Sequence record: OQ850288
Source of the DNA: Escherichia phage vB_EcoM_ULIM9
Direction: 5' to 3' (one strand)
DNA: 64,000 nt
A program made the translations under genes and the position numbers. The stretch's first letter is position 1. Every line of letters starts with the position of its first letter. Below the pieces are notes generated by a model. That model was given only the letters and a program-made list of their open reading frames with translations. It had not been told where the DNA came from and did no database searches. Shown here in pieces: positions 17,965 to 31,915 of this stretch.

Positions 17965-18225
17965 ATGAAAATTGAACACTGCTATGAGTCTGATGGAACA
18001 CCTATCCGATGTCCACATTGTGGGTGTACAGACTTACAAGGCGAGGTAAGTGAAATAGTCAACGGTCATATTGCTGAAGAGAGTACAAGGTGTACAGGAT
18101 GTAATGAAATCATTGCTTTCTGGGCTTATGGTTCATACCAGCCTACACCACACTTAATCTACCATAGCAATAAAGCTGTGAAGAGTGTTATCAACTGGTT
18201 CATTAAGAAAGGATTTACAAAATGA
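17965..18225 (+). CDS. small zinc-ribbon protein (86 aa)
   Basis: CPHCGC...CTGCNE four-Cys motif. Confidence 0.4.
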   Translation: MKIEHCYESDGTPIRCPHCGCTDLQGEVSEIVNGHIAEESTRCTGCNEIIAFWAYGSYQPTPHLIYHSNKAVKSVINWFIKKGFTK

Positions 18226-18767
18226 TTAAATTAATCTTTGCAAGTGGTGAAAATGGGGAGTTTGGTACTCCAACTGGTATGCCGTGGCCTCGACATAAAC
18301 AGGATATGCAAGAGTTTAAGAGACTCACTAAAGATAACTTAGTAGTAATGGGTAATGAGACTTTTAAGACTCTGGGTAGCAAACCATTACCAGAACGTAC
18401 AAACCTCGTCTTAACGAACTCTGTTCCATATTTGGGTATAGACTTTGACAAAGATGATGTAATGTATGCTAAGGCCAGTAAAGAGTCCTTTGGAGCATTT
18501 TTGAAATATCTTGATAGCTCTATTGATGAAGATGTCTTTGTAATTGGTGGTGCAGGTGTTCTTGTCAATGCTTTGCCGTATGCTGGTGTAGTTTTCCATA
18601 CAGTTTTCCATAAAGTTACTGAAGAGGCCACTGTGTATTTACCTTTTGAAAACTTCTTCGATAAACTGTATGATAGCCGTGTATTTGCAAAGGTGCAGTC
18701 AAGACCCTCAGATGATGGTAAAGCAACCTTTGAGATTTATGTTCCACAAGTAAAAGGACACTTTTGA
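18222..18767 (+). CDS. folA: dihydrofolate reductase
   Basis: 181 aa; N-terminal MIKLIFASGENGEFGTPTGMPW and VMGNETFKTLG...PLPERTNLVLT match the DHFR fold signature. Confidence 0.75.
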   Translation: MIKLIFASGENGEFGTPTGMPWPRHKQDMQEFKRLTKDNLVVMGNETFKTLGSKPLPERTNLVLTNSVPYLGIDFDKDDVMYAKASKESFGAFLKYLDSSIDEDVFVIGGAGVLVNALPYAGVVFHTVFHKVTEEATVYLPFENFFDKLYDSRVFAKVQSRPSDDGKATFEIYVPQVKGHF

Positions 18768-18768
18768 T

Positions 18769-19668
18769 ATGTCACAAGCAGATTCAAGTTATAAAAATAT
18801 CCTGAACCATGTTTTATCAGTTGGTGAACTGCGTACTACACGAACTGGAGATGTTATCTCTGCATTTGCTCCACCTAAGTTTCGTTTTGATATGCGAACT
18901 GGTTTTCCACTCTTAACATCTAAACAGGTGTTTACAAGGCAAGTTATTGGGGAAGCTTTATGGTTCCTGAATGGTGAGAATAAACTTGGTGAACTTCGTT
19001 ACCGCACTTGGGGTGAAAATGATGGAGAACGCTGGACTATCTGGTCAGATGATTTTAAACGCTGGTTAAGCTCTAACTATTCTTCTGAGCAAGACTGGTT
19101 AGAAGATGCAGGTGGGAGAATCTACGGGGTTCAGTGGAGAAACTTTGAAGGTCATAATGGTTGTGTTGTAGACCAGTTAGAAACCTTAGTAACGAAGATG
19201 AAGGGTGATATCACAGACCGCTACATGCTTGTTAATGCTTGGAATGCAGCAGATATTGCAGCTAACTCTATGGCTTTAGCACCTTGCCATGTACTGTTTC
19301 AGATTTATATCACTAACGAAGGTGAAGTTGACTTACAATGGTATCAACGTTCTGTAGACACCTTTTTAGGACTTCCGTTTAACATTGCATCTTATGGTTT
19401 TATTCTGGAAGTTCTTTGCAAGATGACTGGATACACTCCACGGTACTTGATAGGTGTCTTTGGAGATACTCAGATTTATCAGAACCATATGAAGCAGGTT
19501 TATGAACTGATGAACAATGAAGAGTTCCATGCACCTACTTTTGAGATTGGTGTGCAGCTTAACACCCTAAGTGATTTAAAACACCTTACTGCAAGTGATT
19601 TTATTGGCGGCATTAACAACTACCAACATGCAGGGAAGATTGAAGCACCTCTGTCAGTAGGTAAGTAA
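18769..19668 (+). CDS. thyA: thymidylate synthase
   Basis: 299 aa; catalytic-site block PCHVLFQIY...YQRSVDTFLGLPFNIASYGF is the classical ThyA signature. Confidence 0.85.
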   Translation: MSQADSSYKNILNHVLSVGELRTTRTGDVISAFAPPKFRFDMRTGFPLLTSKQVFTRQVIGEALWFLNGENKLGELRYRTWGENDGERWTIWSDDFKRWLSSNYSSEQDWLEDAGGRIYGVQWRNFEGHNGCVVDQLETLVTKMKGDITDRYMLVNAWNAADIAANSMALAPCHVLFQIYITNEGEVDLQWYQRSVDTFLGLPFNIASYGFILEVLCKMTGYTPRYLIGVFGDTQIYQNHMKQVYELMNNEEFHAPTFEIGVQLNTLSDLKHLTASDFIGGINNYQHAGKIEAPLSVGK

Positions 19669-19671
19669 AAC

Positions 19672-19712
19672 AAAAAAGGCTCCCGTAAAAAGGAGCCTTA
19701 AACTTTATTTTT
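19672..19712. terminator. bidirectional intrinsic terminator between convergent genes
   Basis: Hairpin GGCTCC-cgtaaaaa-GGAGCC flanked by A-run upstream and T-run downstream; lies between thyA (+) and the minus-strand gene ending at 19705. Confidence 0.6.
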
Positions 19713-20076
19713 CAGTATTCTTTGTGTTCTTTTCAGTAATAGCTTGGAGGGCTGATACTGATTGAGCCAGATTGTTCACACTGTCAGAGAATTTATCAAG
19801 AGTTTTGGTAAGTTTTGCGTTTTCACCCTTAACATTCTCTAACTGAACTTTCTGGTTCTCCATCCCTAGCTGAATCAGTCTCATGTCAGACTGTAAATCA
19901 CGAATAGCTGAATAGTTACTTTTGGAATAATTATCTAGCTGCTGTAACTTTGTTGTGACAGACACTTCTTGCTTACCACTTGAAACTTGCATAGTGGTAT
20001 ACATCCCAATAACACTAAAAATACCAACTACAATTGCACCAATATTATTTTTAAAAGCTTCCTCTAGCCACTTCAT
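19705..20076 (-). CDS. membrane-anchored coiled-coil protein (possible i-spanin-like or fiber-assembly protein)
   Basis: 123 aa; one N-terminal transmembrane helix (GAIVVGIFSVIGMYTTM) then heptad-rich domain. Confidence 0.3.
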   Translation of the reverse strand: MKWLEEAFKNNIGAIVVGIFSVIGMYTTMQVSSGKQEVSVTTKLQQLDNYSKSNYSAIRDLQSDMRLIQLGMENQKVQLENVKGENAKLTKTLDKFSDSVNNLAQSVSALQAITEKNTKNTEK

Positions 20077-20271
20077 TTATTTCTCCCCCTTAAAAGCTTT
20101 TTCTAAGTTATCTACGAACTCATCATCAATAGGTGTGTCTGTTTTACTCGCAAGGTATCTTGCAAGCTTAAAGAACACTTTCTCAATCATGTATTCACTT
20201 AGAAGGGATAAAATGAGTTTCCAGAAGAAGCTACCTAGATTTTTTAGAAGAATTGCTAGGATTGTAGGCAT
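20077..20271 (-). CDS. small membrane protein (holin-like candidate)
   Basis: 64 aa; hydrophobic N-terminal half, charged C-terminus. Confidence 0.25.
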   Translation of the reverse strand: MPTILAILLKNLGSFFWKLILSLLSEYMIEKVFFKLARYLASKTDTPIDDEFVDNLEKAFKGEK

Positions 20272-20350: not shown

Positions 20351-22699
20351 TTAAGCAGTTCTCACCCAAGCCATTAACTTGTAGAACTGGTTAGTAACAC
20401 TAAATGCTGAACCAGAACCTGTACCACCAGTGTTACCACTAACTGTGTGACTGTGAGCACCAATACCTACAGAGTGAGCATGGTCGCCAGCAGATGCAGC
20501 AGTACCACTGACTGAGTGAGTGTGCGCACCATCATTTTCAGTCCAACCAACATGGGTCTGTCTAGAGTTTGAAGACGCGACTCTACCTGATGAAACGTTA
20601 GCGTTGTCACCCTGTGAAATTCTGTGTGCGTGTTGCCCAGAAGTTGCAGCAGTACCACTAACTGAGTGAGTGTGTGCACCAGTACCATTAGTGTTCTTCG
20701 TACCATAATCAAAAGATGAAGTGGTAGCAGAGAAACTATGGGTATGTGATGGTAAGTTACCAACAGCTAACGTCACAGAATCTGAGCCGCCTGTTGTAGC
20801 AACATCTGAACCGTTTGCTGCTGCGATTCTGATAGTTCTACCAACACCATTGTTCAGGTAAGTCCAAGTTAACCCAGGAAGTGCTGTATTAGGGTCAACA
20901 TTGCTGTTAAACCACGTTACAATACCTACTGGATAGATTTTATTAAGGTCTGTAGAGTCACTAATTGCTGTTGCAATTTTCTGGTCAGTTTCTGCTTTAG
21001 TATATGCACCAATCTCTGAAGGAGTTGGTTTAAAATCAGTTGTGTAAAGCTGTGCCTCTCCGGCATAGTCACCATTTCCGTCATAGGCATAGGTGAATGT
21101 TGCCAAACCGTTTGAACCGTATACAAAAGAGATACCCCTTGCGTGTGCAGCAGTCTTACTAGAGTGAGCAACATGAATTGCCAACTCTTTCAGACCACTA
21201 GTCACATTGTTGTTTCTGACAAAACCTGAATACCCAAGATTAAATGCTGAAGGGTTTCCAAGATTATCTACAGATGCAGTCATCAAAGATTGATTTAATA
21301 ACTGAGTCTTAACAAAGTATCTAGCATCTAAGTTAGACCAATTTTGTGGTTGAACCTGCCCATTAATATACAGATTCTTATTCATACTAACCAATGTTGG
21401 CTCTAGGGAAATTTGAGTGCCTGAAAAGCTGTTGCTCAAGGTTACCACGTTAGAATTAGCAGTTCCTACGCCCAGCCACCACCTAGATACGTTCGCAGTA
21501 TCCACACCACGGATATATTGTGGCTGTCCCTGTGTTAAGTTCCTCAATACTAGGCCTTCATTGTTAGATACAATAGTCTGCACATTCGTGAAAGTGTTTG
21601 CCACATTAATCTTAGCAAGACTACTCAAAGTAGCTGCTGGAATGTATCTAGAGTCGATATTAGCCCAATCAGAAGGTTGAACTTGACCTCCAATTTGGAC
21701 TGTTCTGCTCATGGTAATGGTGTTACCTAATGAGATTTGTGTTTTTGCTAAATAGTTATAGATGTTTACAATGTTTTCATCACCATCATTACCAATGTAC
21801 CACTTATTAGTTCCATCTGATTTCCTTGCTTGGATATACAAAGCCGCAGTTGTATCTACATTTTGAATAGTAATAGCATTAGCATTCTTCTTAATAACAA
21901 AATTAGTGAAAATATTAGAACCACTAAATGTGTTATTGCCAGCTAACTGCGCAAATCTCTGATTAGCTGCTGTCTGAGTAAAGTATCTAGAATCTAAGTT
22001 AGCCCAATCAGATGGTTGAACTTGACCAGTAATCTGGATAGATTTGTTCACAGAAATTAGGTTATCCAAAAGAGCTAAATACGCACCGGATTTGACATTT
22101 TTGATAACAAGATTGTCTGTACCTCTATTATCATTACCTAGATACCACCTGTTAGTGCCATCTACATCTTGACCACGAATATAGAGTGGCATATCCTGTG
22201 TGATATTTTTAACAATAAGAGCTTCATTGTCAGAGAGAATAGCTTGAGTACCTCTAAAGGTGTTATTTACAGCTAGTCTTGCATACCTTGCATCATTCTC
22301 TTCATTAGTTCTCATCCCAAGTTCATTAGGACTTGGCTTATTCAGAGTATGATAGACAGTTGCTGACCTTGAAGCATCTGCAATAGTTAGTTTAAGGCCG
22401 TTTGCGTTGATTTTAAAAGTCTTTAAAACATCCCCAACAGTAATCTCAGAAGAGCCTGTAGGGTCGAATACAGCCTTGCCACCGTAAAGTAGCTTAACAA
22501 TTCCTAAGTCACCCGTCATAGTGCTACCAGCAATCTGAACAAATCTTTCAAGTTTAAAAGATGCTAAGAAATCTTGATAGGTCATTCGACGGTCTTCATC
22601 ACCCAGCATTTCAGGTCTCTTTTTAACCCTGACATGAAGAAGGTCGTCTGAACGAATTGTGTCGATTGAGTTTAATTCACTCAACTTGTAGTCTGCCAT
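20351..22699 (-). CDS. tail fiber protein with three internal repeats and His-rich C-terminal tip
   Basis: 782 aa; three roughly 110-aa repeats each ending GQVQPSDWANLDSRY-like; C-terminal HxH array (GAHTHSVSGTAA...HAHSVGIGAHSHTVSG). Confidence 0.7.
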   Translation of the reverse strand: MADYKLSELNSIDTIRSDDLLHVRVKKRPEMLGDEDRRMTYQDFLASFKLERFVQIAGSTMTGDLGIVKLLYGGKAVFDPTGSSEITVGDVLKTFKINANGLKLTIADASRSATVYHTLNKPSPNELGMRTNEENDARYARLAVNNTFRGTQAILSDNEALIVKNITQDMPLYIRGQDVDGTNRWYLGNDNRGTDNLVIKNVKSGAYLALLDNLISVNKSIQITGQVQPSDWANLDSRYFTQTAANQRFAQLAGNNTFSGSNIFTNFVIKKNANAITIQNVDTTAALYIQARKSDGTNKWYIGNDGDENIVNIYNYLAKTQISLGNTITMSRTVQIGGQVQPSDWANIDSRYIPAATLSSLAKINVANTFTNVQTIVSNNEGLVLRNLTQGQPQYIRGVDTANVSRWWLGVGTANSNVVTLSNSFSGTQISLEPTLVSMNKNLYINGQVQPQNWSNLDARYFVKTQLLNQSLMTASVDNLGNPSAFNLGYSGFVRNNNVTSGLKELAIHVAHSSKTAAHARGISFVYGSNGLATFTYAYDGNGDYAGEAQLYTTDFKPTPSEIGAYTKAETDQKIATAISDSTDLNKIYPVGIVTWFNSNVDPNTALPGLTWTYLNNGVGRTIRIAAANGSDVATTGGSDSVTLAVGNLPSHTHSFSATTSSFDYGTKNTNGTGAHTHSVSGTAATSGQHAHRISQGDNANVSSGRVASSNSRQTHVGWTENDGAHTHSVSGTAASAGDHAHSVGIGAHSHTVSGNTGGTGSGSAFSVTNQFYKLMAWVRTA

Positions 22700-22745
22700 T
22701 ATAAATTTTCCTCTAAAAAGGGGCTATAAAGCCCCTGTAAAGAAA

Positions 22746-23918
22746 TTAAGCTGTTCTCTGCCATACATACAGTACGAAGGATGGCTGCTCAATATTAACT
22801 GCCTGACCTCCACCAACGCTATTTGTATTGCCACTATGTGTATGTTCAGAAGAAGAAACTGTTACAGTGCCACTGTGCGTGTGTGAACCAATACCAACTG
22901 TATGGCTGTGAGCACCAATACCAACCGTGTGGCTGTGGTCACCTGATGCACCAGATGTGACGTTAAAGCTGTGTGAGTGCGCACCGTCACTAGAAGTCCT
23001 TGATGTTCTTCTTGCACCACCACCATCAGAGTCAGCTACAGCATTACCAGTGCCATCATTTTCTCTAGGATACACATCATGGTTGTGAGTACCATTGGTG
23101 CTAGTGTTACCTGACACACCGTGTGTATGGTTGCCAGTTGTGTTAGTAGCTTTTGTTCCATAGTCAAAAGAGCTAGTAGTCTTAGTCCCATAGTCAAAAG
23201 CTGAAATTGACACAGTTGCATTATGAGTGTGACCACCACCACTAAGAGATACAGAGTGGGAGTGTTGAGGCATGTTATTAACTGACAAAGTAACAGTTGA
23301 AGCACCAAATACAGAACCTGCTGGTCTTGCATCAGAGGCATAACCAACCAATGCCCTACCTTTTGAAACCAACTCCCAAGTACCTCCACAAATTAAATAT
23401 GTAGAAGGGTTTGCAGAGTTCATGGAAAGATGGATAGTACCTACCGGATAGGAAGCCTGAACAGCCTTGTACAAGTTATTTACTGCTCTCGCTGTAGCAT
23501 ACTTATCTGCATCTTCATTATAAAGGTTAGATGTTGTCCAGTTCTGGACATTACTCAACCCTACCTGTACCTTAGTTGTATTGTGCGGATTACTCTTATC
23601 ATTAATATGCTGTTGAACAAGGCTATTAACCTCTTCGGAAGACATAATCTGTAGATTTGCTCTTGCCTCAGCTACATTAACAATATCTGATAAGTTATTT
23701 GCAGCAACTAACTGAAGAGCATTAATAACATTATCTAAACCAATTTGTGTTTTAGTAACACCATGAGGGTTATTTCTTAGGCTTGAGTGTGGAGCAAGCA
23801 ATTGCTCAAGAGTGCATCTCTTATCCTCAATACCCTGCTTAAGATGGAAGATATCACTAAGGTCAATTGGTAAGGCTGCTTGAGGCAAGGCACTAATTTG
23901 AATTTCACCTACTGCCAT
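22746..23918 (-). CDS. tail fiber / receptor-binding protein with His-rich C-terminal tip
   Basis: 390 aa; C-terminal HxH array (GNHTHGVSGN...GAHSHTVGIGSHTHSG) and terminal ...YVWQRTA similar to ...MAWVRTA of the neighbouring fiber. Confidence 0.65.
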   Translation of the reverse strand: MAVGEIQISALPQAALPIDLSDIFHLKQGIEDKRCTLEQLLAPHSSLRNNPHGVTKTQIGLDNVINALQLVAANNLSDIVNVAEARANLQIMSSEEVNSLVQQHINDKSNPHNTTKVQVGLSNVQNWTTSNLYNEDADKYATARAVNNLYKAVQASYPVGTIHLSMNSANPSTYLICGGTWELVSKGRALVGYASDARPAGSVFGASTVTLSVNNMPQHSHSVSLSGGGHTHNATVSISAFDYGTKTTSSFDYGTKATNTTGNHTHGVSGNTSTNGTHNHDVYPRENDGTGNAVADSDGGGARRTSRTSSDGAHSHSFNVTSGASGDHSHTVGIGAHSHTVGIGSHTHSGTVTVSSSEHTHSGNTNSVGGGQAVNIEQPSFVLYVWQRTA

Positions 23919-23920
23919 TA

Positions 23921-31915
<7,995 letters not shown>

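Follow-up and report, generated by a model that had tools for sequence, protein, structure and literature searches.

Two adjacent tail fibre proteins of Escherichia phage vB_EcoM_ULIM9 share a histidine-rich, T4 gp37-type tip, and the longer one carries three tandem domain repeats

The tail fibre region of Escherichia phage vB_EcoM_ULIM9 lies at positions 20351-23918 of a 64,000 nucleotide (nt) stretch of sequence record OQ850288, which is referred to here as the window. It contains two open reading frames on the minus strand, separated by 46 nt and encoding proteins of 782 and 390 amino acids (aa). An earlier reading of the bare letters (the sequence-only reading) had given both frames with the same coordinates and strand, and the peptides quoted in it were all recovered, namely GAHTHSVSGTAA (twice in the 782-aa protein), HAHSVGIGAHSHTVSG, GSHTHSGTVTVSS and the C-termini YKLMAWVRTA and FVLYVWQRTA. 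Megablast searches placed the region in Felixounavirus (Felix O1-like myoviruses), with 230 matching phage records, a best identity of about 92% and matches split into two to five pieces. We consider it very probable that this is the tail-fibre module of a Felixounavirus, in which two adjacent genes encode homotrimeric fibres with T4 gp37-type tips; the trimeric state, the bound metal, the receptor contact and the recombination mechanism we infer. The two genes and their parts are the following:

20351..22699, minus strand: long tail fibre gene of 782 aa (matched over its full length by phrog_4277 'tail fiber protein' with 1255 bits; gene order shared with FO1a, Sf15 and others)
22310..22699, minus strand: N-terminal region, aa 1-130, with putative baseplate-binding part and the first shaft domain, which is conserved (81-89% mean pairwise identity in eight phages)
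21980..22309, minus strand: shaft repeat R1, aa 131-240 (PF20744)
21644..21979, minus strand: shaft repeat R2, aa 241-352 (PF20744; DNA repeat D3, 90 nt, 74%, spacing 339, marks the conserved repeat ends)
21314..21643, minus strand: shaft repeat R3, aa 353-462 (PF20744; the repeat profile matches 4A0T/7BOZ and 5YVQ)
20945..21313, minus strand: fifth shaft domain, aa 463-585, which belongs to another sequence type (match to residues 332-430 of 8JU3, the Mu tail fibre S', E=1e-4; PF12604 under cut-off)
20354..20944, minus strand: predicted receptor-binding tip of the long fibre, aa 586-782, with collar, six-HxH needle, head and C-terminal return strand (2XGF, E=8e-16; T4 alignment; PF03335, 32.7 bits, cut-off 20)
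20441..20719, minus strand: long-fibre head cassette, aa 661-753, SSFDYGTK to GIGAHSHTV, with the hypervariable head at about aa 693-723 (entropy maximum aa 691-720)
22746..23918, minus strand: short tail fibre gene, 390 aa (phrog_2097, E=7e-137; 99% identical to the phage REP5 tail fiber)
22749..23459, minus strand: predicted receptor-binding tip of the short fibre, aa 154-390, with Gp10_C-like collar, nine-HxH needle, head and return strand (2XGF, E=5e-29; PF21939 Gp10_C, 63.4 bits, cut-off 27)
22896..23174, minus strand: short-fibre head cassette, aa 249-341, with the same SSFDYGTK and GIGAHSHTV borders (entropy maximum aa 286-300)

Both fibre genes match the profile of their family over the full length and are located after the baseplate wedge genes, as in the other members of their orthologue groups. 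The phrog_4277 profile (780 positions) covers residues 1-782 of the long fibre, which is 100% identical to the entry 'tail fiber [Escherichia phage vB_EcoM_ULIM9]'. The 782-aa protein is thus named here as the orthologue of Bas63 gp27, Sf14 gp53 and Felix O1 gp76, and the 390-aa protein as the orthologue of Bas63 gp26, Sf14 gp52 and Felix O1 gp75.

The C-terminal regions of the two proteins are homologous, with 36% identical aa between residues 589-782 of the long and 157-390 of the short fibre (BLASTP, E=8e-33). Searches with phmmer matched the crystallised T4 gp37 tip (PDB: 2XGF) to residues 146-362 of the short fibre (E=5e-29) and to residues 646-761 of the long fibre (E=8e-16). The tips also align at the YP(V/I)G start of the collar and at the C-terminal VRxA strand, where YKLMAWVRTA and FVLYVWQRTA stand opposite FNYIVRLA of T4. 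The Gp10_C family (PF21939) exceeded its cut-off of 27 in the short fibre but not in the long one (24.6 bits); the long collar nonetheless aligns to the short collar by BLASTP. In the long fibre the Phage_fiber repeat family (PF03335) was above threshold. At the level of sequence, both fibres end in a T4 gp37-type receptor-binding tip, and the shared tip proposed in the sequence-only reading is borne out by the match between the two tips and by the match of each to 2XGF.

The 390-aa protein could instead be the functional or evolutionary counterpart of T4 gp12, the short tail fibre that binds irreversibly after contact of the long fibres, and not a second gp37-like fibre. The Bas63 paper (PMC12609058) refers to the orthologue of this protein as the short tail fibre, and the collar of the protein has a match to Gp10_C, a family of the T4 baseplate and short-fibre attachment group. 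We regard this explanation as unlikely, since a search of the PDB sequences with the 390-aa protein at E<=0.01 returned just the gp37 tip, as the best match, and gp10, but no gp12 chain; on this result homology to gp12 was rejected. Furthermore, the fibre measures 430 Å and, as with the long one, is folded up against the sheath (PMC12609058, PMC11821841), and the authors of the Sf14 study name both fibres 'long tail fibers' (PMC11821841). The short fibre may still have a role in sequential binding.

For two gp37-type tips, the T4 structure suggests that each chain would run down the needle, form a small head and run back to the collar, with GxHxH motifs on both runs. Each motif would contribute two histidines per chain, so that three chains would provide six ligands for one metal ion, which in the T4 tip is Fe2+ (via PMC12609058). 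The long fibre has six HxH motifs (residues 652, 676, 690, 726, 740 and 749) and the short fibre nine (residues 219, 230, 264, 278, 314, 328, 337, 346 and 359). Shuffling the residues of the whole protein did not reproduce the observed number in any of 20,000 trials for either protein (mean of 0.39 motifs for the long and 1.41 for the short fibre), and shuffling within the tip reached it in 1/20,000 trials for the long and 0/20,000 for the short fibre. The register of the motifs was taken from a five-way alignment including T4 and Felix O1. Six sites are in register in all aligned proteins and the seventh site of T4 corresponds to residue 346 of the short fibre, whose additional sites at residues 230 and 359 have no T4 counterpart. 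Deletions of 21 aa on the descending run and of 20 aa on the ascending run match each other in the long fibre and make its needle shorter. The predicted number of metal ions would then be six in the long fibre (T4 minus one) and nine in the short fibre (T4 plus two), a difference that would follow from the matched indels, of 21 aa on one run and 20 aa on the other. Across the family, short fibres carry 6-10 motifs and long fibres 4-6, compared with 7 in the T4 tip, and the predicted number of metal sites in the needle would vary in the same ranges through matched indels.

The twelve histidines of the HxH motifs are conserved in 42-43 of the 43 long-fibre homologues, and the short fibre shows the same pattern. 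Structural metal ligands on either side of a variable receptor-binding head would be expected to show such conservation around a variable segment. The sequence-only reading had stated that HxH arrays of T4-type fibres coordinate metal ions; the matches to 2XGF and the register with T4 support this statement, as does the Bas63 paper, which ascribes the same tip to both its fibres.

Two repeats were observed in the needles. The long-fibre gene contains a direct DNA repeat of 58 nt (20474-20531 and 20624-20681, 84% identity, spacing 150 nt) in the needle segments flanking the head, which encodes GAHTHSVSGTAA(T/S)(S/A)G(Q/D)HAH twice. It makes the long-fibre needle pseudo-symmetric about the head, and the head could be lost by slippage between the copies. 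In the short fibre the FDYGTK motif is present as a tandem duplicate (23144-23200, aa 240-256: SAFDYGTKTT-SSFDYGTKAT; DNA repeat D8, 27 nt, 85%); T4 has DLGTKTT-SSFDYGTK and the long fibre has one copy.

The shaft of the long fibre contains three tandem repeats of about 110 aa, as the sequence-only reading had noticed. Their pairwise identities are 43%, 41% and 30%, profile-profile comparison with hhalign gave a probability of 100% for all three pairs, and each repeat terminates in the GQVQPSDWANLDSRY block (MAFFT, HMMER), in which G-Q-V-Q-P...N-x-D-x-R-Y is invariant. Pfam family PF20744 (gp37_trimer) matched three stretches of the long fibre with 191.4 bits in total (cut-off 21.7). A profile built from nine such repeats detected the pyramid domain of T7 gp17 (4A0T; 7BOZ residues 369-438; E~2e-7) and the Mu fibre protein S (5YVQ). 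On the DNA level the similarity among the repeats is confined to the repeat ends (54-56 nt, ~84%), which indicates an old triplication.

The Bas63 structure counts five beta-rich shaft domains (PMC12609058), of which the three repeats are the middle three; as far as the aa sequence goes, domain triplication is correct. The domains on both sides (residues ~48-130 and 463-585) showed no relationship to the repeats in hhalign (probability <4%), and a hidden Markov model of the three repeats found no further degenerate copies. The two flanking domains are linked to each other just by a weak 19-residue terminal motif (probability 26%), and a self-BLAST of the long fibre returned nothing useful. A low-confidence AlphaFold2 model of the long fibre, which is not to be trusted, displayed five beta-rich blocks with a short helix after each. 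The long-fibre shaft would accordingly be built from three tandem PF20744 domains of the T7 gp17 pyramid type between two unrelated beta-rich domains, and a baseplate-binding role of residues 1-130 is suggested by the Bas63 structure. Within the fifth shaft domain, identity at aa 481-540 is just 5-27% in comparison with seven named relatives, one of which is VpaE1_ev108, otherwise the closest. The same domain type is common to many database homologues, and there seem to be two or more alternative modules for this position.

Comparison of eight phages revealed conserved N-termini, collars and proximal needles, and variable shaft domains 2-5 and heads. Among the 43 long-fibre homologues the entropy peaks between the third and fourth HxH motif, and aa 691-720 of the long fibre are 16-23% identical to six of seven relatives. 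The head between the needle runs is the hypervariable part and presumably contacts the receptor, which in this phage group is the lipopolysaccharide core. The two heads encoded in the window differ from each other (~36% identity), which suggests two specificities. DNA matches between the two genes fall solely on the borders of the head cassettes (32 nt at 81% and 39 nt at 85%), and the longest exact run is 17 nt.

Head regions were cut from 170 short and long fibres and clustered. Of the 33 head clusters, two hold both short- and long-fibre backbones, and the median cross-type identity is 34%. In Felix O1 the two fibres share the head and the adjoining needle with 82% nt identity over 271 nt, about 100 nt of which are nearly identical, and the remaining parts of the tips are no more alike than in other phages. 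A tblastn search with the Felix O1 head detected 136 places in 82 records, 76 of them Salmonella phages, and about two thirds carry this head on both fibres. In a metagenomic Felixounavirus contig (L013) the two fibre genes are 100% identical over 278 nt, in a tract that extends exactly from the SFDYGTK to the GIGAHSHTV codons. Its head is T4-like, with 82% identity to T4 gene 37 over 310 nt.

About 20 E. coli Felixounavirus isolates, among them VpaE1, likewise carry a T4-like head on the long fibre. The head class of the window's long fibre recurs with 72-74% identity in the 53-kb phages ST32, TH53 and EcoM1 and with 58-60% in some Tequatrovirus genomes, and the head class of its short fibre is paired, in different isolates, with either a T4-like or a window-type long-fibre head. 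The wild type of VpaE1 (KM657822) has a T4-like long-fibre head, and the records of VpaE1_ev035, ev78 and ev108 (including L005, LR699048 and LR597663) have the window type. This suggests that the VpaE1 'ev' genomes differ from VpaE1 by replacement of the head.

Across the family the head thus behaves as a cassette, presumably exchanged at the conserved SSFDYGTK and GIGAHSHTV borders, between the two fibres and with other phage lineages. We lean slightly towards the view that it is portable between the short and long fibre genes of one genome, and among Felixounavirus, T4-like phages and the 53-kb coliphages. If this is true, a phage could toggle between one specificity on both fibres, as in most Salmonella phages of the Felix O1 type, and two specificities, as in vB_EcoM_ULIM9 and most of its E. 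coli relatives.

The sequence-only reading had regarded the paralogous tips as potential recombination substrates for host-range switching and had proposed a nucleotide comparison of the two genes. For the family this idea holds, in view of the head exchange in Felix O1 and L013. The comparison within this genome showed similarity at the cassette borders only, and for vB_EcoM_ULIM9 itself recombination is a possibility that is not visible in the sequence.

A stronger version of the idea would make the tips a recent tandem duplication that is recombining now, as an active host-range switch of this genome. The genes are adjacent, lie on the same strand and have a common tip architecture, and relatives carry homogenised heads; yet an identity of 36% between the tip proteins, and exact DNA matches of no more than 17 nt with a best local match of 39 nt at 85%, make a recent origin highly improbable. 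Moreover, the two-fibre arrangement is kept across Felixounavirus, Mooglevirus and Suspvirus, so that the duplication or acquisition must be old, and exchange of heads seems episodic and partly from other phages. On the protein identity, the short exact matches and the conservation of the arrangement across genera, a recent duplication within the genome was rejected. In Kolesnikvirus (M7, ST-3) and Pectobacterium phage Wc4-1 (L010, L011, L012) a gp37-type tip with 6 or 10 HxH motifs is found on the first fibre alone; in these Ounavirinae the place of the second fibre is taken by unrelated proteins, either one of 502 aa together with further fibre genes or one of 1041 aa, with 0-1 HxH motifs and no array. 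For this reason the short-fibre tip looks like the older resident of the subfamily. The two tips are old paralogues and not the product of a recent duplication.

That the His-rich stretches are compositionally biased low-complexity sequence, alike by chance and without a shared fold or function, has a negligible probability: G, S, T and H are abundant in the tips, which also contain short internal repeats, and the composition adjustment of BLAST could in principle leave residual similarity, but both tips match a solved structure (E=5e-29 and 8e-16), the HxH motifs are in register over ~200 residues including the non-repetitive collar and C-terminal strands, and none of the 20,000 whole-protein shuffles reached the motif count. 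This coincidence, which the sequence-only reading had itself named as a way in which it could fail, was rejected on the 2XGF homology, the shuffles, the T4 register and the almost invariant histidines (42-43 of 43 long-fibre homologues), whose neighbours vary.

Several points weigh against the interpretation of the region as two gp37-type fibres with exchangeable heads. The AlphaFold2 monomer models were of low confidence (mean predicted local distance difference test of 44.8 and 64.2, predicted template modelling score of 0.20 and 0.24), and a Foldseek search of the short-fibre model against the PDB returned nothing at E<=0.001 and the gp10 C-terminal domain weakly. Because the models are poor and the fold search gave no significant match, the structural reading rests on sequence homology and on the published structures of orthologues, in whose maps the fibre density is too weak for side chains (PMC12609058). 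Trimerisation, metal content and receptor binding of this phage are accordingly predicted from its homologues and from those structures. The ~36% identity of the two heads in the window reveals no exchange in this genome, and L013 comes from a metagenome assembly, so that its shared head could still be an artefact of assembly.

The analysis confirms the observation and supports its interpretation, and the architecture has already been published for orthologues. Both VpaE1 fibre proteins were described as homologous to the T4 adhesin (2015, PMC4690856), the same two fibres were described by cryo-electron microscopy for Sf14 (2025, PMC11821841), and both fibres of Bas63 were found by cryo-electron microscopy to have a tip of collar, needle and head (2025, PMC12609058). 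Bas63 (Escherichia phage JohannRWettstein) with gp26/gp27 and Shigella phage Sf14 with gp52/gp53 belong to the same genus or subfamily and have the same gene order as vB_EcoM_ULIM9. The Sf14 fibres have 391 and 792 aa, compared with 390 and 782 aa here. In all three phages both fibres end in a collar-needle-head tip that resembles T4 gp37 and bears HxH motifs, repeated beta-rich domains with short helices between them form the shaft of the long fibre, and the receptor-binding tip and shaft domains 2-5 are hypervariable. In contrast to Bas63, the short fibre here has nine HxH motifs instead of the seven reported, and the long fibre has six and is without the HHxH variant. The head sequences are unlike those of Bas63 and Sf14, and the fifth shaft domain is unlike that of many relatives.

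The T4 gp37 tip (2XGF) has the same order of collar, needle and head, six of its seven HxH sites in register, and the FDYGTK and GIGAH(S/T)HTV motifs and C-terminal VRxA strand in common with both fibres. However, in T4 the tip stands at the end of a four-protein fibre, whereas here single-protein fibres would sit directly on a simple Mu-like baseplate; HxH sites number six and nine here and seven in T4, and in contrast to T4 no gp38-like gene adjoins the fibre genes. The heads are unrelated to that of T4, whereas some relatives carry a T4-like head. Each 110-aa repeat of the shaft matches PF20744, and the repeat profile matches the T7 gp17 pyramid domain (4A0T) at gp17 residues 369-438 (E=2e-7); the domain occurs three times in tandem here and once, beneath the tip domain, in T7 gp17.

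The cassette idea is close to the T-even 'His box'. In the distal fibre genes of T-even phages, Tetart et al. (J Mol Biol, 1998) reportedly proposed that conserved 'His box' motifs flanking variable adhesin segments are cross-over points which swap specificity. Here the partners include two paralogous fibre genes in one Felixounavirus genome as well as other lineages. Literature searches on Felixounavirus fibre recombination and the 'His box' brought up no description of exchange between two fibres of the same genome. Exchange of heads between fibres is not described in the Bas63, Sf14 and VpaE1 papers, and the word 'recombination' occurs 0 times in the Bas63 paper (PMC12609058). The exchange of head cassettes between two fibres of one genome is thus the sole element for which we found no published description, and it is a modest extension of known fibre mosaicism. 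As it stands the finding adds nothing new, in that published fibre architecture was recovered from raw sequence. Its practical value lies in engineering the host range of phages of the Felix O1 type, which serve in diagnostics and biocontrol of Salmonella and E. coli: the comparison marks SSFDYGTK and GIGAHSHTV as precise, naturally used junctions for swapping heads between fibres and phage families.

Upstream of the fibre genes the following genes were found:

23921..24223, minus strand: 100-aa protein directly upstream of the short fibre (phrog_4141, unknown function)
24223..26552, minus strand: baseplate wedge genes of 285 aa (wedge 1) and 489 aa (wedge 2, Baseplate_J) (Pfam PF04865, PHROG baseplate families)

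The gene order is Baseplate_J (489 aa), 285-aa baseplate protein, 100-aa protein, 390-aa fibre, 782-aa fibre, two small membrane proteins and a convergent thymidylate synthase gene, and it is kept in Felix O1/FO1a, Sf15, ASO1B, Ro111lw, tootiki and EP1. The sizes of wedge 2, wedge 1, platform and short and long fibre proteins match those of Bas63 (PMC12609058). From this conserved order and the description of Bas63, the 100-aa protein is probably the fibre platform, at the position of Bas63 gp25.

Adjoining the fibre genes there is no fibre chaperone gene of the gp38 or Mu type; just the two small membrane-protein genes come after them. The first encodes a 64-aa protein with a hydrophobic N-terminus (20077-20271, same strand; phrog_402), whose orthologue in L013 carries Pfam PF26925. 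The second encodes a 123-aa membrane and coiled-coil protein (19705-20076; phrog_4038), which is annotated as holin in Sf15 and tootiki and has a weak match to Rz-like spanins. A scan for promoters and terminators gave counts not above those of shuffled sequence, and its sole terminator-like site was a bidirectional hairpin at 19676-19699, located between the fibre/holin operon and the convergent thymidylate synthase and dihydrofolate reductase genes (18222-19668, plus strand).

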